Below, piece after piece: positions 3 to 17,620 of a DNA stretch of 64,000 nt. The position numbers were made by a program, and so were the translations under genes. Under the pieces are notes generated by a model. The model was not told where the DNA came from. It saw only the letters and a list, made by a program, of their open reading frames with translations, and ran no database searches. The stretch comes from Minisyncoccota bacterium (GTDB lineage: Bacteria > Patescibacteriota > Minisyncoccia > Moranbacterales > UBA1568), in contig JBPPMJ010000003.1 of assembly GCA_051306005.1 (NCBI GenBank), positions 249,396 to 313,395 on the forward strand, in the 5' to 3' direction. The number at the start of each line of letters is the position of its first letter. Within the stretch, counting starts at the first letter, position 1.

Positions 3-122
3 ATCCGATCACGCGCGCTGTCCTTTGACAAAGAGCGATTTAAGGCTACAATACAAGACATCATTGAAAAGAGTTTGGCGCAACACCTGCAAGCTCGTCA
101 GATTGTTCCGTTATCACATTGA
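3..122 (+). CDS. 3' end of an upstream gene of unknown function (partial, about 39 codons)
   Basis: A reading frame is open from the window edge to TGA at 120-122 (…DKERFKATIQDIIEKSLAQHLQARQIVPLSH*). No family signal. Confidence 0.2.
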   Translation: MRSRALSFDKERFKATIQDIIEKSLAQHLQARQIVPLSH

Positions 123-137
123 TCACATCATCAACCT

Positions 138-737
138 ATGGAACTCAAAGAATACTTCCGCATTTTCAGAGAACAATCCGTCATCTTTTGGGGGATAACT
201 ATCGCTATTGTGGCGATAGCATTGGTGTGGTATATCAATCAGCCGATACGTTATCAAGCAACCTTGTTGCTCAATATCGGACGTACTGGTACACAAGATA
301 CTCAAGACTATACGTATGATAGTTTCTATCGTCTGCAGGCAGATGAGCGCTTTGCGGATACGGTGGTACGTTGGCTCAGTGCTCCACGTATCGTAGAAGA
401 TATTTATCAGTCAACGGCAGTGGAGGTTTCCTCAAACACCCCTTTTGTCGCCAAACGACTCTCCTCACAAGTTATTGAAGTTACGTATAGCAATGCCAAC
501 GTTCAACCCCTGAAAGATATCGCCATGAATATGACGACTGTTCTCAATCAGTATGCTGTCACACTCAATCAGGGAAACCAAGAAACGAATTGGTTTGTGA
601 TTATCGGAAGTGAGCCGGTTATTACCGATGCACGCATTTCTTTGCCTCTCACATTTGCTGTTGCGGTGGTCTGCGGACTTTTCTTTGGATTTTGGGGAAC
701 ACTCTTTCGTCACTACTGGCAGACAGACAGTAAATAA
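138..737 (+). CDS. Wzz/PCP-like polysaccharide chain-length determinant family protein (short form with two TM helices)
   Basis: N-terminus MELKEYFRIFREQSVIFWGITIAIVAIALVWY…PIRYQA resembles the Wzz N-terminal TM segment plus P-x-Y-x-A region. A second TM helix at the C-terminus (PLTFAVAVVCGLFFGFWGTLF) flanks a periplasmic domain of about 150 aa. Confidence 0.5.
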   Translation: MELKEYFRIFREQSVIFWGITIAIVAIALVWYINQPIRYQATLLLNIGRTGTQDTQDYTYDSFYRLQADERFADTVVRWLSAPRIVEDIYQSTAVEVSSNTPFVAKRLSSQVIEVTYSNANVQPLKDIAMNMTTVLNQYAVTLNQGNQETNWFVIIGSEPVITDARISLPLTFAVAVVCGLFFGFWGTLFRHYWQTDSK

Positions 738-815
738 TAAGAGAGACAAGTGTAGTCAAAAGCAAAACAAAGTACAAAGACGATACAGAAAAGATTTACT
801 CAGCATGTACGGATT

Positions 816-1979
816 ATGCGCATAGGGATTGATGTACGATGTTTGGCAGAAGGCAAACATACCGGAGTGGAAGAATATACCATTGCGTTGCTTCAGGATT
901 TGTTTCGGCTGGATCACAAAAACGAATATATTCTTTTTTTCAATGCATGGAAGCGGACAGCACCAGATTTTCAGTGGGCGACTCAGCACCCTCATGTTAC
1001 TTTGAAAACCTTTCATTTTCCCAACAAACTCCTGAATATGGCGTTGTGGTATGTGCGTTTCCCCAAGCTTGATCGTTTGCTGGGAGGTGTAGACGTGTTT
1101 TTTTTACCCAATTTGAACTTTGTGGCGTTGTCGGCACGCACGAAATTGGTCGTAACCGCTCATGATCTTTCCTTTGAATTATTTCCAGAGACTTTTTCAT
1201 GGAAACGGCGTTTTTGGCACTTTCTGATTGATTTTCGTCGTTTGGTGCGCAGAGCCGATCAGGTTATCGCCGTGTCTCAATCTACCAAGGATGACGTGAT
1301 AACATACTATGCAATAGCTTCCGAGAAAGTAAGCGTGATTCCGAGCGGTATAGACAATCGCTTTCACCCGATGAGTCGCAATGATACAGAGCTGGTTCGG
1401 GTTCAAGAAAAATATCATTTACCCTATCGTTGTATTTTGGCGTTGGCGACACTCGAACCACGCAAGAATATCATCGCTTTGTTGCGCAGTTATGAGGCGC
1501 TCCGTCGTCTCAACAATCCTGTATTGGATAAATACGCTCTCGTTATCGCCGGCACACCTGGTTGGAAAGACAAAGAAATCTTGCAAGAAATAGAACAATC
1601 TCCCTATCGGAAAAATATTGTGTTGCCTGGTTTCATCGCCGATGCAGACAAGACAGCGCTCTACAATCTGGCAAGCGTCTTTGTATACCCTTCTCTGTAT
1701 GAAGGATTTGGCTTCCCTCCTTTGGAAGCGATGGCATGCGGAGTGCCAGTGATTGCGTCACACTCTTCATCTTTACCAGAAGTGGTGGGGGATGCCGGTG
1801 TTTTGATTGATCCCTATCAGCCCGATGAGCTTTTGCAGGCTTTGCAACAAGTATTGTTGTTTCCGGAATTTGGTGAAACACTTCGACAAAGAGGCATCAA
1901 CCGTGCCAAGCTTTTTTCTTGGAAAAAATCAGCGCAAGCGACACTGCATATTTTTCAGCATCTTATCATTCACAAATAA
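816..1979 (+). CDS. GT4-family (GT-B fold) glycosyltransferase
   Basis: The C-terminal EX7E region is [39 protein letters not shown]. The N-terminus is [10 protein letters not shown], typical of GT4. Confidence 0.85.
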
Positions 1980-2060
1980 GGAGTTTGATTTTTCATTTTT
2001 TGTATTATACAATAGCAGTGGAGATAATATATCTTTGTGTAAATTGTTGTAAAAAATAAT

Positions 2061-3428
2061 ATGGCAAAAACAAAAAACCAGGGTATGGGGATAATGGCTT
2101 CCGTGGTCATTGTTTTTTTGGCATTCAGTTCTTTTCTGGGGATTTCAGCCATTGTCACACACAATAGATTGACTCTATTACCAAATTCTTGGGCAGATGA
2201 TGAAAGAGATTCGGAAGAAGAAGATGAAGAAGAAGAAAATGAAGATTCGGAAGAGCCGGAAGAAAAAGAAGAAAATGAAGATTCAAAAAAGCAAGAAGAA
2301 ACCAAGAAAAAGAATGATGAACAGAGAAGAGAGCAGGAGAAAAAAGATGCGGAAAGAAAGTTGGAGTCTCAAAAGAAGGTAGCCGAAAAAATATACGAGA
2401 AAGAAGATGAAGGAGAGGAATATGAAGACGATGAAGTCAAAGATGACACTGAATCGGAAGATGTACCGGAGAGCGAACACGGTATGTATCAAGAAAAGGA
2501 CAAGACTCTTTTGAAATTACGTCAGGATATAGTGGAAGCCCAAAAGCATCTTTTGGAAAAACAGAAGGAGGGTACGGATACTTCATCGGCTTTGACACGT
2601 CTGAACTTGGCAGAGTCTGATTTGGAAAAAATAAGCATCGCTTTTGATACCAACAATTTGGAAGAAGCCAAAATGTTGACCAAGCAGGTTAAGAGGACAA
2701 CTCACTCTGTTCAAGAGGATTTGCACGATACCAAAAAAATTGCTGAAGAGATATCCAAAGTAGAAAAGCGCTTTGCTCAAGTAGCTGAAAAAATAGTCAT
2801 ACTGAATGATTTGCACGGCGATACGACTCTCTTCAAAAATCAACTTTCTTATTTGCAAGCAGATTTTTCTTTTTTTACGACTTTGTTGAGTATGTATCCC
2901 GATACGGTAACCCGTGATACAATCAGAGTCTTTGAAAAACGCGTGCAACGTTTGCAAAGTTTGATAGAAGCAAATATCATCGTTTTAGGAGGAGATGATG
3001 ACATATTGAAGCATTACGATGATGAGGCAGATGAGCTTTTCAAGGATATGGAATATGTCGCAGATTTTGTAGATGGGGATGACAATAATGTTTCCCACCA
3101 AGTGAGGGGCATAGCAACCGAACAAAAAATCGATTCCGTGATTCTGAAACAAAAATTGGCAGAAGCGAATTCGCGCAGTGCTTTGACCAAGACTTTGTTT
3201 GGTCCCGAAAGTGATGCTCTCGCTGTATTGAGTACCCAGGCGACGGCGATTGATAATCGGGCGACCACATTAGAAAATGTTGCCACTCAAATGACGGATC
3301 CCGCTGTCAAAGAAATCTTGATGAGTCAGGTATCAGTGTTGCGCAGTGAAGCCACCAAGTTACAGGCCTATATCACTGCTGAAAATAACACGTTTAATTT
3401 CGCTCACTGGTTTGCGAAGCTTTTCTAG
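2061..3428 (+). CDS. Hypothetical membrane-anchored protein with an acidic low-complexity region and long predicted coiled coil
   Basis: It has an N-terminal TM helix (IMASVVIVFLAFSSFLGISAIV) followed by the D/E-rich block DDERDSEEEDEEEENEDSEEPEEKEENEDSKK. The rest is K/E/Q-rich heptad-like sequence. I recognise no catalytic motif. Confidence 0.55.
   Translation: MAKTKNQGMGIMASVVIVFLAFSSFLGISAIVTHNRLTLLPNSWADDERDSEEEDEEEENEDSEEPEEKEENEDSKKQEETKKKNDEQRREQEKKDAERKLESQKKVAEKIYEKEDEGEEYEDDEVKDDTESEDVPESEHGMYQEKDKTLLKLRQDIVEAQKHLLEKQKEGTDTSSALTRLNLAESDLEKISIAFDTNNLEEAKMLTKQVKRTTHSVQEDLHDTKKIAEEISKVEKRFAQVAEKIVILNDLHGDTTLFKNQLSYLQADFSFFTTLLSMYPDTVTRDTIRVFEKRVQRLQSLIEANIIVLGGDDDILKHYDDEADELFKDMEYVADFVDGDDNNVSHQVRGIATEQKIDSVILKQKLAEANSRSALTKTLFGPESDALAVLSTQATAIDNRATTLENVATQMTDPAVKEILMSQVSVLRSEATKLQAYITAENNTFNFAHWFAKLF
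2197..2300 (+). repeat. Imperfect GAA/GAT-rich coding tandem repeat (unit gaaaatgaagattc occurs twice) encoding the acidic tract
   Basis: The string gaaaatgaagattcggaagagccggaagaaaaagaagaaaatgaagattc is readable directly. It creates a spurious Lys-rich ORF (2197..2382) in another frame. Confidence 0.45.
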
Positions 3429-3447
3429 GACACCATCCAATTCTAGC

Positions 3448-3476
3448 TTGACATTTATGCAAAAAAGTGCTATTAT
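3448..3476 (+). promoter_or_regulatory. Sigma70-like promoter (TTGACA-17-TATTAT) for the gene at 3558
   Basis: TTGACA lies at 3448-3453, followed by a 17-nt spacer and TATTAT at 3471-3476. A GGGAGG Shine-Dalgarno precedes the ATG at 3558. Confidence 0.5.
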
Positions 3477-3557
3477 AAAAAGCTACTTTTGACTGGTTCA
3501 AAAGTATGACAAAATGGTTCTTTGAACATATGATGATTTTCTTGGGAGGATATATCC

Positions 3558-4175
3558 ATGAAACTGAAGCATTGCGTCATCGCCTCTGTTGCAACCGTGA
3601 CCTGCTGGACGTCCGATGTCCACGCTGATGAAGAAACTCCTCAAAAAGAGGAATCCTGGTTTTCGGGTTCATTACAAACCACGCGTTACGGTCAGGATTA
3701 TCAACCGTGGGAAGTATATGGCGAGGGGGAATTGACAGAGAAGCTTTCTGGGACCGTGGATATCATTACCGCACACGGGTACACAGAAGTGACAGCTGGT
3801 CTGGCCTACTATATTACACCGAATTTTGAAGTCGGCTTGAGTGTCGGTGGGGCACGGTATCTATCCGATACAGACAACAATGAAAGTATCCATCGGACGA
3901 TTGCGGGGTTTGTCTATCTGGCAACAGACAAGACGGTTACCGAAGTGACCGTGGAGCATTATGCGGATGATACCAATCCCTGGTACTACCAAGCATACAC
4001 AGAGTATGCTATCAGCGATGATGTCATGGTCGGTGTATACGGAGAGAAAGGTCCAGGTATCGGTCCGCGCGTCAGTTGGTCTCCAGGAGAACACGTCAGT
4101 CTCTGGATGGCGGTTCCGCTTGTTGATAGTGATACGGAAACATCAATGGTCGGTGGTATACGGATCACTTTCTAA
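3558..4175 (+). CDS. Secreted beta-barrel-like protein (signal peptide; OmpW/OmpA-like 8-strand pattern; C-terminal Phe)
   Basis: A signal peptide (MKLKHCVIASVATVTCWTSDVHA) leads the protein. Alternating hydrophobic/polar stretches follow (YYITPNFEVGLSVGGARYL, VMVGVYGEK). The terminal strand VGGIRITF ends in Phe, as in outer-membrane beta-barrels. Confidence 0.45.
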   Translation: MKLKHCVIASVATVTCWTSDVHADEETPQKEESWFSGSLQTTRYGQDYQPWEVYGEGELTEKLSGTVDIITAHGYTEVTAGLAYYITPNFEVGLSVGGARYLSDTDNNESIHRTIAGFVYLATDKTVTEVTVEHYADDTNPWYYQAYTEYAISDDVMVGVYGEKGPGIGPRVSWSPGEHVSLWMAVPLVDSDTETSMVGGIRITF

Positions 4176-4200
4176 GAAGCAACTTTGTCCATCAGACAAC

Positions 4201-4239
4201 CAACCTGTGTTCGCATGTTCGAATACAGGTTGTTTTTTT
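4201..4239 (+). terminator. Rho-independent terminator after the gene ending at 4175
   Basis: An 8-bp stem (caacctgt / acaggttg) encloses a 16-nt loop and is followed by TTTTTTT at 4233-4239. Confidence 0.6.
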
Positions 4240-4284
4240 GCGCGTTTTTATGATATACTTTCAGAGTAGCGTTATTATATCGTT

Positions 4285-5220
4285 ATGGATAAGAAATCAA
4301 AATTATTCTTCTTGATTTTTTTCCTGATTCTTACGGGAACAATCATGGTGACGTACTATCGGTATGTCGTGTTACATGACTACATAATTCAAGGAAGGTC
4401 AGAGTGTGATCCCTTTACCGAAGCCTGTTTCCTGTCTGTTTGTGACTCTGCGTCTGGTGAAGAATGTGCCAACAACACAGAAGAAGACACCACCTATTAT
4501 AAATTACAACAACGGAATGCTAAAAACATTCCGTTTTGTTATTCTCAGGACGAAAATTGCGATATGTGGACTTGTTCTCCTGATGAAAAAGATTGTTATG
4601 TTACTTTGTGCGATGAGACGACGGCACTAGCAGAAGACACCTCATGCAATGACCCCGTGTCTTACACTGCAGAGCATCCTCCTGAAGAAATGCTCGCAGA
4701 AGAAGATACAGAAAACCAAGAGGACTCAGTATCGGCAGAGACGGAATATTATGAGAGTAAAGATTTTTCTTTTGGTATTACGTACCCCGTTGAATGGATG
4801 CGGGCGGAGATGTCTGAGGCACGTGGTGATACGGATCGTGGAATACTGTTGTTGGAACAAACAGAAGAAACGGTGGATGCAGATTCTGCTTTGATAACCA
4901 TCATCTTTACGCCCGATATCACTCAAGTAACCCATACTTCACCAGACGCTCCACAAGATATCATTGAATACGGACAAGACCCGATGTTTACCGCCGTCCG
5001 TCCCATAACCTTCAACGGAGAGACAGCATTTATCGGGACACTTTCTGCCGATGCAAGTCAGAAAATCATTGTTATCAAGCACAAGCAACATATCTATCAA
5101 ATCCGTTATGACGGTTTGGGTGATCACATGGCTGAAATTGATACCGCTATTCAGTCCTTTGTTTTCCTCGATACCCAATCAGCGGAGAAACTTGTCAATA
5201 CGTCGATCGAAGCGCATTGA
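4285..5220 (+). CDS. Hypothetical membrane-anchored protein with a Cys-rich extracytoplasmic module
   Basis: It has an N-terminal TM helix (LFFLIFFLILTGTIMVTYY). About 12 Cys fall within about 100 aa (CDPFTEACFLSVCDSASGEEC…CYSQDENCDMWTCSPDEKDCYVTLCDE…SCNDP). Confidence 0.5.
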   Translation: MDKKSKLFFLIFFLILTGTIMVTYYRYVVLHDYIIQGRSECDPFTEACFLSVCDSASGEECANNTEEDTTYYKLQQRNAKNIPFCYSQDENCDMWTCSPDEKDCYVTLCDETTALAEDTSCNDPVSYTAEHPPEEMLAEEDTENQEDSVSAETEYYESKDFSFGITYPVEWMRAEMSEARGDTDRGILLLEQTEETVDADSALITIIFTPDITQVTHTSPDAPQDIIEYGQDPMFTAVRPITFNGETAFIGTLSADASQKIIVIKHKQHIYQIRYDGLGDHMAEIDTAIQSFVFLDTQSAEKLVNTSIEAH

Positions 5221-7039
5221 CGATGACAACGATGTCAATACATTCTTGGATAATGGCACCGGAGAGAGGGGAAATATAGCCGAGAGATGCCAGAAGCATG
5301 CCAAATACTGAGAGCCCTATACCAATGATGATACTTTGTAGCGCGACGGTATATGAACGGCGTCCGATATGGATAGCATCACGGATGAGCCATGCATCTC
5401 GTCCAAAAATAGCAACGTCCGCTGCCTCAATTGAAGCGCTATTCTCTGTTCCGGAGAAAACAATACCGATATCCGCCAGTGCGAGTGCTGGCGCGTCGTT
5501 CATCCCGTCACCCACCATCCCGACTAATTTTCCTTCTGCCTGATGACGTTGGATGAGAGCAGTTTTGGTCTCTGGACGGCAGTCAGCGTAGATTGGCAAT
5601 TTGAACGGACCAAATATCCGTTCCGCATTGACCTTTCTGTCACCGGTCAAGATGCCGAGCGTGTAACCTCGTTCTTGTAGGTACGTGAACAATTCATCGG
5701 CATCGGACTTGAGAATATCATCAAAAAAGAAACGAGCGATCAGGCGGGATTCATGATGAAGGTCAACATTCAGATCAACCACGATACCACTTTCGGTGTT
5801 GTCTTGAGCGCGGATGATACGATATGATGTACCATTGACCGTTCCAAAAATACCTTCGCCCATTTTCTCTGTAACATTCTGAGCATCCGGAATATCTGTC
5901 AAGGACACTGTAAAAGCTTTATTGAACGCTTTGGCGATGGGATGAAACGAATAGCGCTCCAGGGCAACGGCGATAGCGAGTGCGTCATCTTGGGAGTAGG
6001 TATGATCATGGACTATTATTTTTTTGAGATGAGGTTCTCCGAGAGTGAGTGTCCCCGTTTTATCAAAGAAAAATGTTTTGGTTTTTGCGAGAAGCTCCAG
6101 AACAAACGGACTTTTGATAATGATATTTTTGCGCGCAGCTTTGTTGAGTCCGCCGATAAAACTCACGGGTACAGCGATAAGGAGGGGACACGGTGTCGCA
6201 ATGACCAGGACTGCGAGAAAACGTTGCCAGTCATTCGTAACCCCATAAGCTCCAATGGCGAGTGCCAACGCAAAGAAAGTAAAGAAAAAATTATAACGTT
6301 CCGCCAAACGTACCATTGGTGAAGGGTGTTGTTTCCCTTCCTCTACCAACGACAAAATTTTGCGATATCCAGAACTCTCAAAATTACCTATGACTTCTAT
6401 CTGCAGAGCCTCACCGACATTAATAGATCCACTTTGTAGAATAGATTTTTCTCGATAAGTGACCGGCTCTATCTCTCCCGTCAAATTGGCTTCGTTGAGA
6501 ATGGCCCGTTTGGATATGAGTTTTCCCTCAAAAGCCAACATTTCTTGGGGACGGATTATCAAAACATCACCATTATTGACGGATTGAATGGGCATTTCAA
6601 TTGTATTGTCACCCCGTTGCACCAAAACTTTTTTGGGAATATTGGCAAAGAGACCACGCAGGGTTTTTTCGGCATGACTCGAGCCGTATTTTTCAAGTCC
6701 GGCACTGACCGCTATCATGAGAGAAATAACAGCCCCAGCCAAGATAGCATCCAACCAGAGTGCCGTGATGAGCGTGAGAAAAGCGAGGTAGTCCAAGTTC
6801 CATTTGTTCATCCTGATCCGTTCGTAGGATTCACCCAAGAGTTGCACGATGCCAATGAGAATGGCAATACCATAAAACCATGAGATACCCGACACAAATG
6901 CAGTGAGAATACTTATACAGACCAATAAAGGGAAGCGAAATTCCCGACTACGCACAATATCCAACAAACTAATCATATAAGAAAGACACCAAAAGATTAT
7001 ATTGTCTATTGTATCAGAAAATACGTTAAAAAAATGCAA
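5195..7039 (-). CDS. Cation-transporting P-type ATPase (no N-terminal metal-binding domain)
   Basis: It carries the TGE loop (NLTGEIEP), the DKTGTLT phosphorylation motif (FFFDKTGTLTLG) and the GDGxNDxP hinge (MVGDGMNDAPALALADIGIVF). A PCP-like TM motif (ATPCPLL) is present. The track start at 7039 is a TTG only 2 nt from the divergent wzt ATG. An internal ATG at about 6976 (MISLLDIV…) is the more likely start. Confidence 0.85.
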   Translation of the reverse strand: MHFFNVFSDTIDNIIFWCLSYMISLLDIVRSREFRFPLLVCISILTAFVSGISWFYGIAILIGIVQLLGESYERIRMNKWNLDYLAFLTLITALWLDAILAGAVISLMIAVSAGLEKYGSSHAEKTLRGLFANIPKKVLVQRGDNTIEMPIQSVNNGDVLIIRPQEMLAFEGKLISKRAILNEANLTGEIEPVTYREKSILQSGSINVGEALQIEVIGNFESSGYRKILSLVEEGKQHPSPMVRLAERYNFFFTFFALALAIGAYGVTNDWQRFLAVLVIATPCPLLIAVPVSFIGGLNKAARKNIIIKSPFVLELLAKTKTFFFDKTGTLTLGEPHLKKIIVHDHTYSQDDALAIAVALERYSFHPIAKAFNKAFTVSLTDIPDAQNVTEKMGEGIFGTVNGTSYRIIRAQDNTESGIVVDLNVDLHHESRLIARFFFDDILKSDADELFTYLQERGYTLGILTGDRKVNAERIFGPFKLPIYADCRPETKTALIQRHQAEGKLVGMVGDGMNDAPALALADIGIVFSGTENSASIEAADVAIFGRDAWLIRDAIHIGRRSYTVALQSIIIGIGLSVFGMLLASLGYISPLSGAIIQECIDIVVIVNALRSTY

Positions 7040-7041
7040 AA

Positions 7042-8370
7042 ATGCAAAAAATAAGGTACAATAGACAGATGATGAACAAAGATATTGCCATTTCAGTCAA
7101 AAACGTCAGCAAGGCCTTTCGTATACCTCACGAGAAAGTGAGTAGTGTTCGTGGTGCAGTTGTTTCGGCATTCAATAGAAATAGGGGCTATGAAGAATTC
7201 CAAGCCCTTGACGATGTTTCTTTTGAAGTGAAGAAAGGGGAATTCTTTGGCATCATTGGACGCAATGGAAGCGGTAAAAGCACGCTTCTGAAGGTCCTTG
7301 CCAGCATCTATCAAGCAGATAGTGGAAAAGTACAGATAAGCGGTCTCATATCGCCATTTTTGGAGCTCGGAATAGGTTTCAATCCCGAACTCTCTGGCAG
7401 GGACAATGTCTATCTGAACGCCACCGTGCTGGGAATGACTAAAAAGCAGATTGATGAGAAATTTGATGCTATCGTAGCATTTTCCGAGCTGGAGCGCTTC
7501 ATTGATCAGAAATTGAAGAATTATAGCAGTGGGATGCAGGTCCGTCTCGCTTTCTCCGTCTCCATCTACGCGAATCGCGATATACTGCTTATGGACGAGG
7601 TACTGGCTGTGGGGGACAGCAATTTTCAGAGTAAGTGTTTGGAGGAATTTGCCAAATATCGAGATATGGGGCGGACCGTCATCATCGTCACTCATGACAT
7701 CTCTGTCGTACAGAGGTATTGTGATCGAGCGATGCTCCTCCGCAATGGAAAGATCCTGAAAATCGGAAAAGCTGAAGAAGTGGGCAACGCCTATGTCTAT
7801 GAGAATATGAGCGACGAAGAACGACGGATGGTAGATGAACAGAAACAAAAATTGGAAAACGCCGAGAAGAATCTGAAAAATTTGAGAGGCAAAGAACTCG
7901 TGAGGGAAAAGCAGAGAATCGCGGAAGAAAAGAAGAAGCTCGAAGAAGAACGCAAAAACAAAGTCGCCGAAATAACGAAAGTAGAATTTTTGGACAAAAA
8001 TGGGAATATAAAGAATGTTTTTGAAACAGGGGACGATATTACGGCTAGGATATACTACTCAGCAAAAAAGAAAATAGAAAAACCAGTGTTTGGAGTCGCT
8101 ATTCATACCTCTGAAGGAATTCTTATTACTGGACCAAATACCAAAACATCGAATGTTAATATAGATTATGTTGAGAGTGATAGTTATATAGATTTTATAA
8201 TTTTAGGCAATAAACTTTTTACAGGTAACTATAGATTTACGGCAGCGATTTTTAATTGGGAATGTATAATACCATTTGACTTTAAGGATAGGGCATATGT
8301 CTTTAAGGTCGTTTCTCAAGAAGAAAATCAGAATGGTTTAATGAAAATGGATGTGCTATGGAAAAAATAA
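7042..8370 (+). CDS. wzt: Wzt/TagH/KpsT-type polysaccharide-export ABC transporter ATP-binding protein with a C-terminal coiled-coil and putative carbohydrate-binding extension
   Basis: The N-terminal domain matches this family: VKNVSKAFRIP…LDDVSFEVKKGEFFGIIGRNGSGKSTLL (Walker A). It continues LISPFLELGIGFNPELSGRDNVYLN and NYSSGMQVRLAFSV, the ABC signature. It also has ILLMDEVLAVGDSNFQ (Walker B) and IIVTHD (H-loop). About 170 extra C-terminal residues follow. These are a K/E coiled coil and then a beta-rich segment, similar in size and position to the Wzt C-terminal glycan-binding domain. Confidence 0.85.
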   Translation: MQKIRYNRQMMNKDIAISVKNVSKAFRIPHEKVSSVRGAVVSAFNRNRGYEEFQALDDVSFEVKKGEFFGIIGRNGSGKSTLLKVLASIYQADSGKVQISGLISPFLELGIGFNPELSGRDNVYLNATVLGMTKKQIDEKFDAIVAFSELERFIDQKLKNYSSGMQVRLAFSVSIYANRDILLMDEVLAVGDSNFQSKCLEEFAKYRDMGRTVIIVTHDISVVQRYCDRAMLLRNGKILKIGKAEEVGNAYVYENMSDEERRMVDEQKQKLENAEKNLKNLRGKELVREKQRIAEEKKKLEEERKNKVAEITKVEFLDKNGNIKNVFETGDDITARIYYSAKKKIEKPVFGVAIHTSEGILITGPNTKTSNVNIDYVESDSYIDFIILGNKLFTGNYRFTAAIFNWECIIPFDFKDRAYVFKVVSQEENQNGLMKMDVLWKK

Positions 8371-9332
8371 ACGAAGAGCAATTGAGAAGAGATATGGTTT
8401 TTCATTTATATGGAAGATTTTCTTTTATTAAGGAAATAATCAATAAAAACCGTATTGCAAATGAAAAACTAAAAATACTGGATGTGGGTGGTCGCGGAAA
8501 CTTGTTGAAGCAGTTTTTTCCTAACGACGCTGTTTTTTATTTAGATCCATTTATTGATTCTACTGATGAGAACTTCATCAAGGGAGATGGTTGTGCCATG
8601 CCTCTTGAAAATGAGAGCTTTGATTGGGTAGTTTCTACGGATGTATTTGAACATATACCACAGGAAAAACGAGAAGATTTTTTAAACGAGAAGATTCGCA
8701 TTGCAAAACGAGGTGTTATCTTGGTAGCGCCATTCTATACGCCTGAGGTTGCGCAAGCAGAAATAAATGCCAACGAAAATTATAAATTACTCCATAATGG
8801 AGATGATCATATCTGGCTACGAGAGCATATAGAAAATGGACTTCCTGATCCAGTGAATTTTGAACAATCCCTGAAGAATAAGAATCTTCCATTTCAAAAA
8901 TTACATAACAATAGATTGTTCTTATGGCAAACCCTTTTAGGTATTGAGTTTCTAATTGATGAAAATCATACCGAGAATACAAATAGGTATTTTGAAGATT
9001 TTAATTATTTTTACAATACTGAAGTAGCTCCATATGATAATCAGGAACCATCGTATAGAAAAATATATTTTATCAAAAAAGACAAAGTTTTACAGAATAT
9101 TGAAGTAACCAGTAAAACACTTGATGATAAGTTATTTTTAAAGGCAATTAAGAATGGGATAGATGTAGTTAATAGAATTTATCTTGAGAATAGAGTATCT
9201 AGAGATCAAGAAATACTGAAATGTAATGAGACTATCAATCAAAAAGATCAAGAACTTACTTTGGTTAAGTCATCAAAGTTTTGGAGAATAAGAGATTATT
9301 ATATTAAGATTAAAAATTTTTGGCATGGATAA
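8358..9332 (+). CDS. Class I SAM-dependent methyltransferase (Methyltransf_11/23-like)
   Basis: Motif I is KILDVGGRGNLLKQ and the post-I acidic residue is in FYLDP. Motif II/III is DWVVSTDVFEHIPQEKREDFLNEKIRIAKRGVILVAPF. It overlaps the wzt stop by 13 nt. The C-terminal tail is SSKFWRIRDYYIKIKNFWHG. Confidence 0.75.
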   Translation: MEKINEEQLRRDMVFHLYGRFSFIKEIINKNRIANEKLKILDVGGRGNLLKQFFPNDAVFYLDPFIDSTDENFIKGDGCAMPLENESFDWVVSTDVFEHIPQEKREDFLNEKIRIAKRGVILVAPFYTPEVAQAEINANENYKLLHNGDDHIWLREHIENGLPDPVNFEQSLKNKNLPFQKLHNNRLFLWQTLLGIEFLIDENHTENTNRYFEDFNYFYNTEVAPYDNQEPSYRKIYFIKKDKVLQNIEVTSKTLDDKLFLKAIKNGIDVVNRIYLENRVSRDQEILKCNETINQKDQELTLVKSSKFWRIRDYYIKIKNFWHG

Positions 9333-9351
9333 AAGTTTTTATTGAATATTT

Positions 9352-10167
9352 ATGAAATATCAAGAGAGTAAGTTGGCTCATGCGTATCTTGATGGTTTAT
9401 GTGGTTTGGAGATTGGGGGAAGCGCACATAACTCATTTGGCCTCAATACCAGGAATGTTGATTATTCCGCTAGTACGAGTACGGCATTTAAACAAGAAGA
9501 AGTAGTGATGTGTGGTGATTTAATGCATGTAGATATTGTCGCTCCTGGGGATAATATACTCGTTCCTGATGAGAGTGAAGACTTTATTATAAACTCACAT
9601 GTCATAGAGCACTTTCCCGATCCCATTAAGGCACTGAAAGAATGGTATCGAATTGTAAAGCGAGGCGGTTACATCTATATTATTGCTCCACACAAAGAAA
9701 GAACATTTGATAAGAATCGATCGAGAACAACACTTCAGGAACTTATTGAAAGACATGAATCTACTGAAATTTCTAAAGTAGATCCCCATGTACACTACTC
9801 CGTTTGGATAACGGAAGATTTAGTGGAATTAATTACGTATCTTGGCTGGAAAATCTCGTTTGTTCAAGATATTGATGATAAAGTTGGCAATGGTTTTGTT
9901 GTTGTTATACAAAAAAATACACAGAGTAATTTAAATATTGATATAGATCTTCATTTGAAGCGTGATTTATTCGAGTATTCAGATATTTTATTTAAAGATG
10001 CTAAAAGTATTGAAAAAATAATAGGCAGAATTATAGCTGATTCTAAAAAACAACATGTGATGGAAAATTCAAAATTTTGGAAATTGCGAGGTATGTATTT
10101 ATCTTTCAAGGAATTTTTTATTGCAAATAGAAAAGATAAACCAAAATTTAGAGGGAAGAATATTTAG
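9352..10167 (+). CDS. Class I SAM-dependent methyltransferase-like protein
   Basis: It has LEIGGSAHN and DFIINSHVIEHFPDPIKALKEWYRIVKRGGYIYIIAP, a Methyltransf_11-like core. The C-terminal tail NSKFWKLRGMYLSFKEFF is paralogous to the preceding gene. Confidence 0.6.
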   Translation: MKYQESKLAHAYLDGLCGLEIGGSAHNSFGLNTRNVDYSASTSTAFKQEEVVMCGDLMHVDIVAPGDNILVPDESEDFIINSHVIEHFPDPIKALKEWYRIVKRGGYIYIIAPHKERTFDKNRSRTTLQELIERHESTEISKVDPHVHYSVWITEDLVELITYLGWKISFVQDIDDKVGNGFVVVIQKNTQSNLNIDIDLHLKRDLFEYSDILFKDAKSIEKIIGRIIADSKKQHVMENSKFWKLRGMYLSFKEFFIANRKDKPKFRGKNI

Positions 10168-10184
10168 TAAATAATGAGATAGCT

Positions 10185-11531
10185 ATGTCTAAAAAACGTC
10201 ACGCACAAATAAAAGAAGTGAAACGGCTTTGCAAAAAAGCAGTTACTGTTTTTAAAGAACAAGGAATGGGTATTTTATTCGAACGAACTAAATTTGAAAT
10301 CTCCAGACGACTATTCATAATAAAAACTGAGGGTGAAAAAACAAGAAAAACAAGTATCATACCTGTTCGAGAATTAATGCGAAATAAATTCATCAATACT
10401 CGACCCATTGATAATATAAGAGTAAAAAGAGGTTCTTTTCGCTTAAATATTGTTACTGATAGTTTACAAAAAGACAGTCTCTTCGGAGGAGTTGCTACGT
10501 CTTTGGTTTTAGCCACGCTTTTTGTAAATAAATATGATATGCCCTTGCGAATTATTACAAGGACAACTGGAGCAAATTCAAAAGCGTATATAACCTTTTT
10601 AGAGTTGATGAAAATAAAAAAACCAAAAGAAGTGGAGTTTTTTTCGGATTATGACTCAATGTACACAAAAAGTAACTTCAAGCTTGAGGTCTCTGAGATG
10701 GATATTTTTCTTGCTACATCTTGGTGGACAGCTGAAGCTGTGCGAAGCGTTAATTTAAGGGAGAAATTTTTCTATATCCTGCAAGAGGTTGAAACTTTCT
10801 TTTATCCAAATGGTGATGAACAATACCGCTGTGAAAGTATATTGAAGAGTCATGATATACATTTTATTCTTAATTCTAAATTGCTCAGTGATTATTATAA
10901 GAACAATAATTTTGAACAAGTAAACAACAACAGTGTATATTTTGAGCCAGCTTTTCCGATTACCATTTATTCACCGTATAGAGTTGTATCAAAACAGAAA
11001 TCTAAATATAAATTATTTTTTTATTCAAGACCAAATAATACTAGAAATCTTTATTTCACGGGTTTGAGGATCCTTGATGAGGCTCTATTGAGAGGAATTA
11101 TACAATCAGATGAATGGGAAATTTGTTTTGCTGGAGCGTCTGTTGATAATATTGAATTTTCAACAGGTGTAAAACCAGTAATGTGTGGCCATATGAAATG
11201 GGAAGAATATGTTGATTTTCTTAAAACAGTGGATCTTGCTTTCTGTTTAATGTTTACTCCACACCCAAGCTATCCGCCCTTGGACGTTGCTAGTTCAGGA
11301 GGGATTGTTCTTACTAATAAGTTTGCCAATAAGAAAACTCTTGATAATTACTCTAAGAATATTATCTGTGAAGATTTAGATATCGAGTCTATGATGAGAG
11401 GGTTTAAAAGAGCCGTCATTTTGGCAAAGAATCATGAAATAAGAACAAAAAATTATACAGAAAATACTATAGATAAAGATTGGAATGCCACGTTTGAGCA
11501 TGTCTTTGATTTTATGAATAACAAAAAATAG
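10185..11531 (+). CDS. Putative glycosyltransferase (unassigned family; resembles WsaF-like GT-B enzymes)
   Basis: At about 448 aa it has no TM segment and has an alternating alpha/beta pattern. The segment KYKLFFYSRPNNTRNLYFTGLRILDEAL looks like a GT-B N-domain. The low-GC context sits between methyltransferases and another GT. I have no decisive motif for family assignment. Confidence 0.35.
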   Translation: MSKKRHAQIKEVKRLCKKAVTVFKEQGMGILFERTKFEISRRLFIIKTEGEKTRKTSIIPVRELMRNKFINTRPIDNIRVKRGSFRLNIVTDSLQKDSLFGGVATSLVLATLFVNKYDMPLRIITRTTGANSKAYITFLELMKIKKPKEVEFFSDYDSMYTKSNFKLEVSEMDIFLATSWWTAEAVRSVNLREKFFYILQEVETFFYPNGDEQYRCESILKSHDIHFILNSKLLSDYYKNNNFEQVNNNSVYFEPAFPITIYSPYRVVSKQKSKYKLFFYSRPNNTRNLYFTGLRILDEALLRGIIQSDEWEICFAGASVDNIEFSTGVKPVMCGHMKWEEYVDFLKTVDLAFCLMFTPHPSYPPLDVASSGGIVLTNKFANKKTLDNYSKNIICEDLDIESMMRGFKRAVILAKNHEIRTKNYTENTIDKDWNATFEHVFDFMNNKK

Positions 11532-11543
11532 AATAATCTTGTT

Positions 11544-12740
11544 ATGTATAATTTTGAAAATTCTAAAATTACTCAAGAAGTTAATCCGTGGAATACAAGA
11601 ATTGAAAAGAGGTTATCAATTCTTGTAAATAATTCTTCGCGAAAAAAGGTTGTTTATATTTATGAGGCAGCTGATACGAGTACATTTCGGTATAGGGCAT
11701 ATAATATGTGCCAATCATTATCCTATAGTAATAAGTACGAGGGGGTGTTCTTTTTTGAAGAAGAATTGGATATTATTTTTCAGTATCTTGATTATGCAAG
11801 TATAGTTATTTTTGTAAGGACTCGTTGGTCTGAATCAGTGGCTAATTTCTTTTATATAGTTAAGAAAAGGGGAATACCAACGCTTTTTGACTCTGACGAC
11901 TTGGTATTTGACCTTGAGTCATTGCCATTGCTCATGAACACCTTGGGGATAGACTTGAGTCGATCTGAGAATTATAGCCACTGGTTTTCTTATGTATCAC
12001 GCTTATGGCTCATGGGGAGTATGTGCGATGGATACATCGGGACAAATGAATTTTTAAAAAATAGGATGGAAACTATTTTTAATAAGCCCGCATTTGTGGT
12101 GAATAATTTTCTTAATAACGAGCAGTTAGAGGCATCTATGGAGATTTTTAATAAAAAGAAAAGCCTGACAAATTCGGAACCATTTACAATAGGGTACTTT
12201 AGCGGATCACCTTCTCATGTCAATGACTTTAAAAAAGTGGCGTCTGAAATAAAGGATCTCATGGATACATATGATGACATCCAATTAAGTGTTACTGGTT
12301 TTATGGAATTTCCAAGCTATCTAAAAGAGCATATTAAGTCTGGAAGGATTACATATACGAGCCTTGTGGATTTTTTGACACTACAGGTAAAGATAGCGAG
12401 TGTGGATGTTAATATCGTACCACTTGTGGTCAATGAATTTACTAACTGTAAATCAGAGCTGAAATTTTTTGAAGCTGCGATTGTAGGCACTGTTACTTGT
12501 GCGTCACCAATTTATTCTTACAAAGATAGTATCCAGGATAATAAAACTGGGTTTTTGTGTATGGATGGTGAGTGGTTTGTGGCGATTGAGAATATCTATA
12601 AAAAAAGAATAAGCGATGATATGGTGGCATTAGCGAATGAGTATTGTTTAGAACGGTATTCTCCAAATAAATCAGCCCAGATTCTAGAAGATATTTTTGA
12701 TATTATTTTATCAAAAATACTAATAATGAGAGATAACTGA
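11544..12740 (+). CDS. Putative GT-B fold glycosyltransferase
   Basis: The C-terminal region ELKFFEAAIVGTVTCASPIYSYKDSIQDNKTGFL resembles the GT4 E-x7-E nucleotide-sugar binding helix. There is no TM segment. Confidence 0.4.
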   Translation: MYNFENSKITQEVNPWNTRIEKRLSILVNNSSRKKVVYIYEAADTSTFRYRAYNMCQSLSYSNKYEGVFFFEEELDIIFQYLDYASIVIFVRTRWSESVANFFYIVKKRGIPTLFDSDDLVFDLESLPLLMNTLGIDLSRSENYSHWFSYVSRLWLMGSMCDGYIGTNEFLKNRMETIFNKPAFVVNNFLNNEQLEASMEIFNKKKSLTNSEPFTIGYFSGSPSHVNDFKKVASEIKDLMDTYDDIQLSVTGFMEFPSYLKEHIKSGRITYTSLVDFLTLQVKIASVDVNIVPLVVNEFTNCKSELKFFEAAIVGTVTCASPIYSYKDSIQDNKTGFLCMDGEWFVAIENIYKKRISDDMVALANEYCLERYSPNKSAQILEDIFDIILSKILIMRDN

Positions 12741-12764
12741 AAGCTTCTGATTCGAATAACTCTA

Positions 12765-13261
12765 ACGATAGACTGTAAAATCTGATATCGTAAACTCCTC
12801 AGCTCGGTCTGTCGGGTCGATTCTTAGCTCAATGAGTTTTTGTCCCAACTTTTTCTCGAGAAGATCAAAATTAATGAGCACATGATCAGATTTTGTATTA
12901 TCTGCGTATTTTTCGCTATACCAACCAATTGCAGGCTCACTTGCGAAGGAATAGTAGAGCCTGGCAAGTCCTGTTCTTCCTGATATGTTAAATTTTAAGC
13001 CCTTAAGCCCATCAGTATTAATGATGATTTGTGCGAATCGTTTGATGTTGAGATTAAAGTGTTATGATCACTTTCTTGGATATTGATAGTATTCTTCTCT
13101 GGTAACGTAAAGGAGATAGTCAAAAATTGTATAGAAGTGTCCGCCTGTTTTTCTATTATAAAATCTGTATTTCGATAAATCCGACGCCACCAGTTACGAG
13201 GATATTCATAGAACGTGTGAGAAAAAAATATCGTTATCATCAATTGTATTTTCCTCGCCAA
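12765..13261 (-). pseudogene. Frameshifted gene remnant of unknown family
   Basis: Two minus-strand frames are open and protein-like. One is the 88-aa ORF 12995..13261 (…FYEYPRNWWRRIYRNTDFIIEK…). The other is a 99-codon stop-free stretch at 12765..13061 with no ATG: …NIKRFAQIIINTDGLKGLKFNISGRTGLARLYYSFASEPAIGWYSEKYADNTKSDHVLINFDLLEKKLGQKLIELRIDPTDRAEEFTISDFTVYR*. The two frames overlap at 12995-13061. The remnant lies at the right edge of the low-GC cassette. Confidence 0.35.
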
Positions 13262-13977
13262 TCATTCAAGCGGATTTTGAGGAGAGCAAAAAACATATTG
13301 ATAGGGTCTCGGAGGATACTCACATTGGTATTGCGAAGGTCTCGAAGAATAGTGACTGGGAGCGTGGTGATACGAGTGTGTAATCGTCGCGCGAGAAATA
13401 TCAGCTCGGCGTCAAAGGCAAAACGCTGAACGGTGATTTTGGAAAAGAGTGCTAGCGCTGTTTCACGGCGGAAAAGCTTGAAACCACACTGTGTATCGGG
13501 ATATCGCACGTTGTTGAGGATGAGCGCTTGGAGCAGGTAGAAACCTCTGGCAAAAATAATCCGATACCAGGAAATGGGTTCATGAAATTTGGATCCACCG
13601 ATGAGTCGTGAGGCAATAACCATGTCTGATGTATCCAGAGCCGTGAGGAAACGGCCGAGTTCGGTGATGGCGATGGTGAGATCGGCATCCAAAAAGAGGA
13701 TAGGATCGTACTGTGAAGCGAGGACACCAGCTTTGACGGCAGAGCCTTTGCCTTGATTGACGGGAAAAGTGATGAGTACCAACGGGATTTCCGCGTGTTC
13801 TTTTTGGAGTTTTTTGACAATTTGATGAGTATGGTCTGGACTGCCATCGACGACAACGATGATTTCATAGCGGTCAAAGTGAGCGGTCAGGTAGCGTGCC
13901 ACAATCAGGATGTTGGTCGTGATGACGTCCGCTTCCTTGTAACAGGGGAGAATAACGGAGATTTCAGGATAGGTCAT
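13240..13977 (-). CDS. GT2-family glycosyltransferase (soluble DPM1/dolichol-phosphate-mannose synthase-like)
   Basis: The N-terminal half is ISVILPCYKEADVI…YEIIVVVDGSPDHT…NQGKGSAVKAGV…ILFLDADL. The likely start is the ATG at 13975-13977 (MTYPEIS). The track ORF extends further, to 14019. Confidence 0.8.
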   Translation of the reverse strand: MTYPEISVILPCYKEADVITTNILIVARYLTAHFDRYEIIVVVDGSPDHTHQIVKKLQKEHAEIPLVLITFPVNQGKGSAVKAGVLASQYDPILFLDADLTIAITELGRFLTALDTSDMVIASRLIGGSKFHEPISWYRIIFARGFYLLQALILNNVRYPDTQCGFKLFRRETALALFSKITVQRFAFDAELIFLARRLHTRITTLPVTILRDLRNTNVSILRDPINMFFALLKIRLNDWRGKYN

Positions 13978-14097
13978 AGAAGGGATAGTAAGAAATACAG
14001 GTATAGTATAGCATATCAAGAGATGGCTTTGCAGTTGTCTATTGGGGGTGAGTACGGTATACTGGAGGCATGTTTAATTTAATAGGTATTTTAGTAT

Positions 14098-15039
14098 ATG
14101 GAATCGACGAGTCCATTTTTATCCGTTATTGTGCCGTTATACAATGAGGCTGGTAATGTGATTGAGTTGCATCGTAAAATTCACACGGCGATGCAAAAAA
14201 TAGGGAAGTCTTTTGAAATTATTTTTATTGATGATGGTTCGACGGATACGACATTTGAAGAGACACGGAACCTCTCTCCGCTCACATTGATTGTGTTTCG
14301 CAAGAATTTTGGACAGACAGCGGCTTTTGATGCGGGTATCAAACAGGCGCAAGGGAATATTATTATCACGCTGGATGGTGATTTACAGAATGATCCGGCG
14401 GATATTCCGTTGTTGCTTGCCAAGATGGACGAGGGATATGACATCGTGTCTGGTTGGCGCTATAAGCGTCAAGATCCTTTGAGCAAGAAAATCCCGTCAC
14501 GTATTGCCAATATTTTGCGTAAAATGCTCATTCACGATAATATTCATGATTCAGGGTGCAGTCTCAAAGCCTATAAGCGAGAATGTTTCCGCGATGTGGA
14601 TCTGTTTGGTGAGATGCATCGTTTCATTCCTGCTATTTTGCAATTGGATGGCTATCGGGTTGGCGAGGTCAAGGTCTCTCATCATCCGCGTGTGCACGGT
14701 GTGACCAAGTACAATTGGAAACGCGGGTTCAAAGGTTTGGTGGATATGATTTCCATCTGGTTTTGGCGCAAGTATTCGTATCGTCCTTTGCATCTCTTTG
14801 GCGCGAGTGGCATATTGCTCTCCAGTATCGGTGGATTGATACTGCTTTGGATGATTGTAGAAAAGTTTTATTTCAATGCGTCTCTTGCGGATCGGATTTG
14901 GCCGTTGATCGGCATTTTCTTTCTCTTGGTGGGTATGCAACTTTTTGTTTCGGGTCTTTTGGCGGATATCGCTGTCCGAAGCTATTATCAAGTGCATCAA
15001 CGGATGAATTATACGATTCGTGAGACACGAAAACAATAA
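14098..15039 (+). CDS. Polyprenyl-phosphate glycosyltransferase (GT2; GtrB/ArnC-like, with two C-terminal TM helices)
   Basis: The GT2 core is LSVIVPLYNEAGNV…FEIIFIDDGSTDTT…NFGQTAAFDAGI…IITLDGDLQNDP. The C-terminus has two hydrophobic helices (LFGASGILLSSIGGLILLWMIV and IWPLIGIFFLLVGMQLFVSGLL), as in bactoprenol glucosyltransferase GtrB and ArnC. Confidence 0.85.
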   Translation: MESTSPFLSVIVPLYNEAGNVIELHRKIHTAMQKIGKSFEIIFIDDGSTDTTFEETRNLSPLTLIVFRKNFGQTAAFDAGIKQAQGNIIITLDGDLQNDPADIPLLLAKMDEGYDIVSGWRYKRQDPLSKKIPSRIANILRKMLIHDNIHDSGCSLKAYKRECFRDVDLFGEMHRFIPAILQLDGYRVGEVKVSHHPRVHGVTKYNWKRGFKGLVDMISIWFWRKYSYRPLHLFGASGILLSSIGGLILLWMIVEKFYFNASLADRIWPLIGIFFLLVGMQLFVSGLLADIAVRSYYQVHQRMNYTIRETRKQ

Positions 15040-16429: not shown

Positions 16430-17620
16430 GTGTCTATGAAAATCTTGTTTCTCAATTATGAATATCCTCCGCTCGGAGGTGGTGCAGGTAATGCGACGGA
16501 GTATCTGCTTAGAGAATATGCTTTGATGCCTGATATGGAAGTGCACCTTGTTACGTCATCGGTGGATGACGCATATCATCAGACTGTGATAGGCGGACAG
16601 GTGACAGTGCATACGGTGCCGATTGGCAAAAATCCGAAGACACTTCATTTTCAGTCTACCAAAGATTTACTCCGTTATTCTTGGGCAGGGTATCATTTGG
16701 CGCAGACGTTGTTGCGAGAAGGCAATTTTGATATCATACATGCGTTTTTTGGCATACCATGTGGGGTGCAGGCGTATTTGCTGGGTCGACGTTTCCGCAT
16801 ACCTTATATTGTTTCTTTGCGTGGTGCGGATGTGCCTGGTTTCAGTGAACGATTCAGTTCTCTGGAGTTTGTTTTACGCCCGCTTATTCGGTTTGTCTGG
16901 CGTAGAGCCAGTGCGGTTGTGGCAGTCAGCCAGGGGATGCAGGCATTGGCACGAGAGACGAGTCCCAATCAGGAGATGAGTGTTATTCCCAATGGTATTG
17001 ATATACGGGATTTCATCATGAGTCCTGGGAGTACGGATGGTGTCTTGCGTCTCATTTCTACATCACGTCTGACTCCGCGTAAGGGATTGCACTACTTGAT
17101 AACCGCGATCAAGATATTGCGTGAACAATACGCGATAACGGCGGTAGAAGTACTTTGTATCGGTGATGGACACGAGCGTGCTCAGTTGGAACGACAGGCG
17201 CGAGAGATGGGGACGGCGGAGCAGATACGCTTCATCGGACGTGTTCCACATACGCAATTGGGAGAGTGGTATGCGCAGGCGGATGTTTTTGTTCTGCCTT
17301 CTCTGAATGAGGGGATGAGCAACGCGATGTTGGAAGCTCTTGCGTCTGGTTTGCCACTGCTTGTGACTCGGACTGGCGGTGCCGAAGAAGTGCTGGAGGA
17401 AGGAAAAAATGGTTTTGCCTTGGAAATGCACTCAGCGCAATCTATTGCTGATCAGGTGAAGCGTCTCATAGGTGATCCCGTACTTCGTCGACAGATGGCA
17501 CAGGCGAGTCGTGCCAAAGCAGAAACATTGACCTGGCAATGTGTCGCGCGCGCCTATCGTGCACAGTATGAGATGGCCATCATACCAGTAGCTCAAGAGT
17601 CATCATCTACTCCCGTATGA
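16430..17620 (+). CDS. GT4-family glycosyltransferase
   Basis: It has ILFLNYEYPPLGGGAGN and EGMSNAMLEALASGLPLLVTRTGGAEEVLEEGKNGFAL. The track start is GTG at 16430; an ATG lies at 16436. Confidence 0.85.
   Translation: MSMKILFLNYEYPPLGGGAGNATEYLLREYALMPDMEVHLVTSSVDDAYHQTVIGGQVTVHTVPIGKNPKTLHFQSTKDLLRYSWAGYHLAQTLLREGNFDIIHAFFGIPCGVQAYLLGRRFRIPYIVSLRGADVPGFSERFSSLEFVLRPLIRFVWRRASAVVAVSQGMQALARETSPNQEMSVIPNGIDIRDFIMSPGSTDGVLRLISTSRLTPRKGLHYLITAIKILREQYAITAVEVLCIGDGHERAQLERQAREMGTAEQIRFIGRVPHTQLGEWYAQADVFVLPSLNEGMSNAMLEALASGLPLLVTRTGGAEEVLEEGKNGFALEMHSAQSIADQVKRLIGDPVLRRQMAQASRAKAETLTWQCVARAYRAQYEMAIIPVAQESSSTPV

Follow-up and report, generated by a model that had tools for sequence, protein, structure and literature searches.

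Where is the permease? The question is raised by a 64 kb stretch of DNA from a Moranbacteria-type bacterium of the Candidate Phyla Radiation (CPR), hereafter the window (all coordinates are positions in it), which encodes a Wzt-like ATPase of ABC-transporter-dependent glycan export. The initial annotation had described, between 7042 and 10167, this Wzt with its C-terminal extension and two methyltransferases, had noted the lack of any ABC-2 (Wzm) permease gene in the window, and had offered three explanations: a permease encoded elsewhere in the genome, a different membrane partner for the ATPase, or a hybrid of the two canonical export routes. Gene content and coordinates agree with our Pfam analysis. 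Concerning the explanations, comparison with related genomes points to the first one: we put at roughly 80% the probability that wzm lies elsewhere in the genome, and that the genes found here are the glycan-specific half of an ordinary cap-reading export system. What is described below is a known export system in an under-studied phylum, with a loosening of the wzm–wzt linkage that is typical of the lineage, and gene order accounts for the missing permease better than new biology would.

The Wzt ATPase and the search for its permease

The gene wzt opens a run of five plus-strand genes (7069–12740), followed by two putative S-adenosylmethionine (SAM)-dependent methyltransferases (MT1 and MT2), a WsaF-like glycosyltransferase and a 398-aa glycosyltransferase-like protein. 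The spacing within the run, namely a 13-nt overlap between wzt and MT1 and then gaps of 19, 17 and 12 nt, argues for a five-gene operon. The overlap, already pointed out in the initial annotation (MT1 starts at 8358, 13 nt before the end of the wzt stop at 8370), is real and recurs in the relatives L012 and L134. The longest open reading frame (ORF) of wzt spans 7042–8370 (+, 442 aa); the identical protein MGK2848829.1, from a metagenome-assembled genome (MAG) labelled "Minisyncoccota bacterium", is annotated by NCBI as an ABC transporter ATP-binding protein and given a start at M10, i.e. at 7069.

Pfam recognized in Wzt an N-terminal nucleotide-binding domain (NBD; ABC_tran, E=2.2e-21) and a C-terminal carbohydrate-binding domain (CBD; Wzt_C, PF14524, E=5.4e-26, 91.7 bits against a cut-off of 30.4). 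The best match of the NBD in the PDB was the Wzt of Aquifex aeolicus (8DKU/7K2T, E=1.4e-63), followed by TagH/TarH (7DD0, E=2e-51; 6JBH, E=2.3e-50) and by mycobacterial Wzt (9QFX, E=7.5e-41); TagH models were the top NCBIfam matches of the NBD, yet they remained below their own cut-offs. Mycobacterial Wzt has no CBD, the C-terminal region of Bacillus subtilis TagH is not a Wzt_C domain, and Staphylococcus aureus TarH lacks such a region. Sequence likeness of the CBD to that of A. aeolicus Wzt was marginal (domain E=24). An AlphaFold2 (AF2) model of Wzt built on 62 homologues (predicted local distance difference test, pLDDT, 83.8) had as its best PDB match the full-length 8DKU_A, aligned over 433 columns across both NBD and CBD (E=1.8e-35, 32% identity), with NBD-only Wzt, TagH/TarH and mycobacterial Wzt next. 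In the model, residues 300–433 are all-beta (block-mean pLDDT ~85–97) and the long linker between NBD and CBD consists of two helices (residues 235–297).

The Walker A (GRNGSGKST), signature (YSSGM), Walker B (MDE), D-loop (AVGD) and H-loop (H209) motifs are invariant in the Wzt proteins of 62 relatives. With respect to relatives, non-synonymous differences in the NBD amount to 0.08–0.11 and synonymous sites are saturated, which implies long-term purifying selection. Tyr242 is conserved and aligns with Tyr233 of A. aeolicus Wzt, a hinge-helix residue that touches the O antigen (PMC9445017). By analogy, the CBD may read a modified non-reducing end of the glycan, the conserved hinge-helix tyrosine being the single point in favour. 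Judged from its sequence and predicted structure, in which both the NBD and the Wzt_C domain were found, the protein is a canonical Wzt, of the CBD-bearing type that belongs to cap-dependent, ABC-transporter-dependent glycan export.

The analogy with ABC-transporter-dependent O-polysaccharide export, drawn in the initial annotation, is sound as far as export is concerned, considering the full-length Wzt match and the translational coupling of MT1 to wzt. The term "O-polysaccharide", on the other hand, is probably wrong. The window encodes an LCP-family ligase, a TagA/WecG-type transferase, Wzx, Wzy_C and a run of GT-C-like proteins, and because these envelope glycan genes form a Gram-positive-like set in a CPR bacterium, the product appears unlikely to be the O antigen of a lipopolysaccharide (LPS); the final acceptor would be the wall, an S-layer or a lipid. 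The Wzx-like gene that had been placed at 32098 (32098–33582, Polysacc_synt/MurJ/MatE) and the Wzy-like gene at 45841 (45841–47442, Wzy_C) are both real.

That the window encodes no Wzm, as first noted, was upheld by Pfam, by tblastn and by a six-frame search with a clade-specific hidden Markov model (HMM). None of the 54 ORFs of at least 150 aa matched an ABC-2 family in Pfam, and a lenient rescan (E up to 5) of the unassigned membrane proteins of the window detected no ABC-2 likeness. No Wzm was found when the window was searched by tblastn with the Wzm of a relative (best E=1.4), nor when all of its 1511 six-frame stop-to-stop segments of at least 25 aa were compared with a Wzm HMM built from 127 sequences, 120 from the clade and the others more distant (best E=0.94). 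A hydropathy census of the window revealed no protein of ~260 aa with six transmembrane (TM) helices; its polytopic proteins are GT-C/PMT_2-like, Wzx, Wzy_C, LPG_synthase_TM, and three unassigned ones with 9–14 TM helices. Neither a degenerate or frameshifted wzm, nor a second wzt or a wzt fragment was found in the window, and the same holds true for the gene of a 317-aa NAD-dependent epimerase, which is the usual left neighbour of wzm in relatives, and for the SecDF neighbourhood also known from them. The five-gene run itself encodes no membrane protein.

Arrangement of wzm and wzt in related genomes

For Wzt, for Wzm and for the flanking genes alike, the closest homologues belong to Moranbacteria/Moraniibacteriota MAGs. 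Wherever wzm was seen in a close relative, it shares the strand of wzt and lies upstream of it, and it is seldom adjacent (the gaps are given in Table 1). In one relative devoid of a nearby wzm (L101), the genes upstream of wzt are PriA, Fmt and rhodanese genes on the opposite strand, so that wzt has housekeeping genes for neighbours, as in the present genome. Two further relatives carry wzm without a nearby wzt, namely L135 (none within 10 kb upstream or ~5.9 kb downstream) and L132, whose contig ends ~0.8 kb downstream. The layouts of L101, L135 and L132 indicate that unlinked wzm/wzt pairs are normal in this lineage. Here no Wzm gene lies next to wzt or shares its operon, and in most close relatives such linkage is likewise lacking or only loose. 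Among the three explanations listed at the outset, a permease encoded elsewhere in the genome is therefore strongly favoured, wzm and wzt of the relatives being usually separated and sometimes unlinked.

The gaps contain a Y1 transposase, Fic, RhuM, DUF3800, AAA_14/DUF4143 and nucleotidyltransferase toxin–antitoxin pairs, as well as 23S_rRNA_IVP-like genes and large LCAT-like lipases. In addition, four remnants of the 5' part of wzt (Table 1) are placed between wzm and the intact wzt, amid cargo of the Fic, RhuM, DUF3800, AAA_14 and transposase type, and the start of wzt in these genomes looks like a hotspot of insertion or replacement. Because the gaps hold kilobases of mobile and defence-type cargo and wzt remnants, and some pairs are unlinked, pairing calls cannot rely on neighbours; in Moranbacteria-type genomes, adjacency is unusable for pairing wzm with wzt or for pathway calls.

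If wzm is indeed encoded elsewhere, export would proceed as follows. The glycosyltransferases, of which the WsaF-like one is probably rhamnose-adding, would assemble the polymer on a polyprenol carrier at the cytoplasmic face, and one or both methyltransferases would methylate its non-reducing end and thereby stop elongation. The methyl cap would be recognized by the CBD together with the hinge helix of the NBD, and the NBD dimer would drive translocation through the Wzm (ABC-2) channel. The wzm gene of this genome would be located at least 8 kb upstream or at least 56 kb downstream of wzt, probably beside the NAD-dependent epimerase gene, as in relatives. The wzm–wzt junction would be a hotspot of the lineage, where accessory DNA is inserted and a cassette made of the CBD and the enzymes is exchanged, and a rearrangement in this genome would have set wzt beside housekeeping and core envelope genes.

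It should be noted that several observations weigh against this reading. No Wzm attributable to this genome is among the matches listed for the clade Wzm queries (~122 clusters of at least 76% identity), nor do the member lists of 37 of these clusters, 13 multi-member clusters being left out, contain a Wzm from this MAG. This is a weak negative, because partner Wzm proteins within the clade are 54–100% identical and the best 120 matches were listed; the copy may rank below these. Moreover, no rml (dTDP-rhamnose) genes are present within the window, and the identity of MT1 and MT2 as methyltransferases derives from Pfam scores only. Two Wzm candidates, P0326 and P0194, were rejected, as they come from other samples or genomes.

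As an alternative, wzm could be located slightly past the left edge of the window, on the same strand and in the same polysaccharide cluster, which would be ordinary gene-order variation, a case already considered in the initial annotation. In the relatives, wzm always precedes wzt on its own strand, at distances of up to 9.6 kb, which would fit this arrangement, as would the plus-strand glycosyltransferase genes that occupy the left end of the window and the 1.1 kb beyond it. However, the Logan contig that extends 1.1 kb past this edge (L016) adds a single gene for a family 4 glycosyltransferase (GT4; L016:109–1233), which brings wzt to at least 8.2 kb from any wzm (7.0 kb of the window and 1.1 kb of L016), and the minus-strand metal ATPase gene upstream of wzt breaks any operon. 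Furthermore, the block of genes at the left end, composed of this GT4, a Wzz-like 199-aa protein (138–737), another GT4 (816–1979) and an acidic 455-aa protein, keeps its order in nearly all of 80 Moraniibacteriota genomes, and in none of the 80 is a wzm or a wzt found within 10 kb on either side of it. The 80 genomes were retrieved with the GT4 of L016 as query, all at identities of 85% or less. This implies that in the present genome the wzt cassette has moved beside a core block, and makes a wzm just past the edge unlikely.

That wzm has been lost altogether, so that wzt is a stranded orphan, either non-functional yet undecayed or kept for a channel-free role, appears quite improbable. The failure to find a Wzm of this MAG among the matches and cluster lists mentioned above would agree with it, as would the clear rearrangement of the locus with respect to the relatives and the 5' pseudogene remnants of wzt, which show that the region decays; but that negative is weak, the wzt ORF is intact with every catalytic motif present, Logan assemblies of five sequencing runs give one and the same sequence for it, and all five genes of the operon are intact and closely spaced. 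In addition, the same orphan-like layout occurs in L101, and L135 and L132 have wzm alone. Very improbable is also the related case of a genome truly without Wzm, in which the intact CBD-bearing Wzt would energize some other membrane protein, or would act as a soluble cap-sensing ATPase that hands chains onward; if true, such a Wzm-free Wzt would be coupled in a way that is genuinely new to its ATPase family.

Hardly credible, finally, is the pairing of Wzt with one of the membrane proteins encoded in the window, such as the 14-TM protein at 37315–39300, the LPG_synthase_TM protein at 17617–18570 or Wzx, which would combine the ABC and the Wzx/Wzy routes. Apart from the circumstantial presence of a Wzx-like flippase, a Wzy_C protein and many polytopic proteins in the same 64 kb, neither the different partner nor the hybrid route proposed in the initial annotation found positive evidence. 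The arguments against a different partner are indirect: the NBD is 76–88% identical to the NBDs of Wzm-bearing relatives, which argues for the same partner surface; no membrane protein of the window is ABC-2-like by the Pfam and HMM searches described above; and the candidates, with 5–15 TM helices and 317–789 aa, differ from Wzm, which has 6 TM helices and ~258 aa. No ABC NBD of the Wzt family is known to work with partners of this kind. The hybrid route was rejected also because the genes for Wzx and Wzy_C, 24 and 37 kb away from wzt, belong to separate gene runs with glycosyltransferases of their own, one of them on the other strand.

The candidate capping enzymes, the proposed cassette and known export systems

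A cap-adding enzyme would be encoded together with the transporter by the two putative Methyltransf_11 proteins directly 3' of wzt, and MT1 is the candidate for the chain-terminating capping enzyme. The wzt–MT1 pair with its overlap is kept in L012, L098–L104 and L134, and homologues of MT1 form the N-terminal domain of methyltransferase–glycosyltransferase fusions of 1017–1516 aa in L098, L103 and L134. The Methyltransf_11 matches of both proteins are above the gathering score, yet they cover part of the profile only. In the PDB, the matches of both were weak (for MT2, 1VLM at E=4.2e-6; for MT1, none by phmmer and E=0.004 in a profile search); a single-sequence AF2 model of MT1 was unusable (pLDDT 31.5).

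Both proteins end (9240–9332 in MT1, 10050–10167 in MT2) in a coiled coil followed by a conserved SSKFW(K/R)(I/L)R motif, which reads SSKFWRIR in MT1 and SKFWKLR in MT2. Ahead of the motif, the repeat QQKDQEITNLNHTI varies in copy number among the relatives L098, L099, L100, L101 and L104. The coiled coil and end motif recall the coiled-coil ruler of WbdD with its C-terminal membrane or partner anchor.

The WsaF-like GT4 aligns with WsaF (2X0D, E=1.5e-37), with PHPSYPPLD in place of PHPSYPPLE (Glu to Asp), a motif described as a possible rhamnose signature (PMC2943079); it is probably a rhamnosyltransferase. The last gene of the run keeps its synteny with the WsaF-like gene in L012 (55% identity).

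A break in composition runs through wzt. At ~7900, at the junction between the NBD and the linker and CBD, GC content falls from ~45% to ~31–34%, and it remains low through MT1, MT2 and both glycosyltransferase genes; over 7900–13300 it is ~27–41% per 300-nt interval (mean ~33%), against ~44–50% in the flanks. A high-GC NBD and a low-GC CBD were also seen in 10 of the 10 relatives checked, and the median identity among 119 relatives is 82% for the NBD and 49% for the CBD. The coincidence of the two breaks at the NBD/CBD junction suggests that the varying unit comprises the CBD, the capping enzymes and the glycosyltransferases, exchanged as one cassette on a conserved NBD. Such a pattern matches the established picture of serotype-specific C-terminal domains of Wzt (PMC9445017).

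Among described systems, the WzmWzt transporter of A. aeolicus (7K2T, 8DKU) has the same two-domain Wzt, with an NBD and a C-terminal CBD, and the same hinge-helix tyrosine. Its cap is a 3-O-methyl mannose or rhamnose (PMC9445017), and the presence of methyltransferase genes in the present locus fits a methyl cap. It differs in that its host is an LPS diderm and not a CPR bacterium with Gram-positive-like wall genes, in that its NBD–CBD linker is shorter than the one found here (~60 residues, two helices), and in that its wzm is adjacent. The closest described analogue is the S-layer glycan (slg) cluster of Geobacillus stearothermophilus NRS 2004/3a, in which, as here, wzt is followed by a methyltransferase and then by a WsaF-type rhamnosyltransferase. 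There wzm, wzt and wsaE overlap, WsaE caps the rhamnan with its N-terminal 2-O-methyltransferase, the rhamnosyltransferase is WsaF, and Wzt has been proposed to bind the methylated chain end (PMC2943079). The overlap of the wzt stop with the start of the next gene, the low G+C content and a Wzy_C-type transferase elsewhere in the envelope gene set are further points in common (PMC2943079). While the methyltransferase of WsaE is the N-terminal domain of a trifunctional enzyme, those of the present locus stand alone, although the MT1–glycosyltransferase fusions of L098, L103 and L134 provide a parallel. A second difference concerns the permease, since slg clusters keep wzm directly beside wzt, with glycosyltransferase genes next to the pair or one ORF away, whereas here wzm is absent from 64 kb.

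In Escherichia coli O9a/O8, the terminal modification by WbdD is coupled to export through the serotype-specific C-terminal domain of Wzt (PMC9445017), and a conserved NBD with a variable CBD is also seen here. WbdD carries a coiled coil (PMC3482155; PMC9445017). In contrast to WbdD, no kinase domain is present in our locus, the coiled coil is short, and the polymer is probably not polymannose. The mycobacterial wzt-glfT1-wzm operon, which encodes the exporter of lipid-linked galactan with non-adjacent wzt and wzm, is a precedent both for a separated pair and for a Wzm–Wzt system that exports a wall polysaccharide in an organism without LPS (PMC13018209); with one gene between the pair and a single operon, it is a milder case than the present one. 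The TagGH/TarGH exporter of wall teichoic acid is related by its NBD, the next-closest family, and by an envelope context with an LCP ligase and a TagA-like protein, but differs because no polyol-phosphate synthesis genes are found beside wzt here.

A literature search on Wzt in Patescibacteria returned no papers. In E. coli O8/O9a, a conserved engine is known to be paired with a serotype-specific reader, and the cassette described here extends this principle to uncultivated, probably monoderm bacteria. This result, and the finding that adjacency is unusable for pairing wzm with wzt, have modest value for the annotation of CPR genomes and for studies on surface-glycan diversity.

Features of the locus and neighbouring genes

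Table 1. Genes, domains and composition of the locus, and position of wzm and of wzt remnants in relatives (L numbers).
Feature	Location	Strand	Evidence or remark
Heavy-metal (P1B) P-type ATPase	5195..6976	-	E1-E2_ATPase E=1.9e-33; Hydrolase E=1.4e-23; TIGR01525 E=1.9e-117, 393.5 bits (cut-off 346)
wzt, 433-aa ATPase	7069..8370	+	Pfam ABC_tran and Wzt_C; other in-frame ATG at 7042
wzt, NBD	~7069-7770		
wzt, two-helix linker	~7771-7959		
wzt, Wzt_C carbohydrate-binding domain	~7966-8367		
MT1, putative SAM-dependent methyltransferase, 324 aa	8358..9332	+	Methyltransf_11, 33.4 bits (gathering 21.2)
MT2, putative SAM-dependent methyltransferase, 271 aa	9352..10167	+	Methyltransf_11 E=9.1e-11, 42.7 bits (gathering 21.2)
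WsaF-like GT4 glycosyltransferase, 448 aa	10185..11531	+	WsaF_C E=3.7e-40; WsaF_N E=4.5e-14
Glycosyltransferase-like protein, 398 aa	11544..12740	+	Glyco_trans_1_4 E=4e-5, under gathering score
Low-GC stretch	7900..13300		Composition profile, 300-nt intervals
wzm–wzt gap	L109, L102		~0.1-0.2 kb
wzm–wzt gap	L114		1.75 kb
wzm–wzt gap	L134		2.2 kb
wzm–wzt gap	L100		3.5 kb
wzm–wzt gap	L133		8.2 kb
wzm–wzt gap	L014		8.5 kb
wzm–wzt gap	L107		8.7 kb
wzm–wzt gap	L012/L013		9.6 kb
wzt, no wzm nearby	L101		None within 10 kb either side
wzt, no wzm nearby	L139		None in available 4.7 kb upstream
wzt 5' remnant	L100:8462-8719		aa 2-62
wzt 5' remnant	L107:6773-7327		aa 3-169
wzt 5' remnant	L108:2195-2299		aa 2-36
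wzt 5' remnant	L133:8107-8767		aa 2-224, with frameshift

The P-type ATPase gene lies directly upstream of wzt and is divergent from it, filling the usual place of wzm; it was called as a 593-aa gene on the Logan contig L009. It is outside the export system and forms its left boundary. In the left-end block (1–5220), the 455-aa protein is very acidic, with a coiled coil and one N-terminal TM helix, and is often followed by proteins of 205 and 311 aa; none of the three belongs to a Pfam or NCBIfam family. A promoter and terminator scan of 6700–14200 gave 31 promoters against 27.9 +/- 5.9 in shuffled sequences, which is not clearly above the background, and was not used. No match resulted from tRNA and Rfam scans of the window, and the 1.2 kb between two divergent gene runs at 42880–44065 contain neither an ORF of at least 150 aa nor a tRNA or Rfam match.

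Downstream of the glycosyltransferase genes, an LPG_synthase_TM (MprF flippase-like) protein is encoded at 17617–18570; in L012, a 716-aa version (L012:14935–17085) comes directly after the run of wzt, methyltransferase, WsaF and glycosyltransferase genes, with a GtrA-like gene. There follows, at 18597–32073, a run of large polytopic proteins, four of which have PMT_2/PMT (GT-C) matches, while two unassigned ones (20296–21993 and 30547–32073) show a similar predicted TM spacing; a beta-helix/PGA_cap protein is also encoded there. The composition of this run suggests extensive extracytoplasmic glycosylation. Inside the minus-strand run of Wzx and glycosyltransferase genes, 33579–35699 carries a thymidylate-kinase-like gene and an RtcB RNA ligase gene. 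A gene for a LigT-like 2',5' RNA ligase is present at 56860–57408, and in L132 a LigT homologue directly follows wzm.

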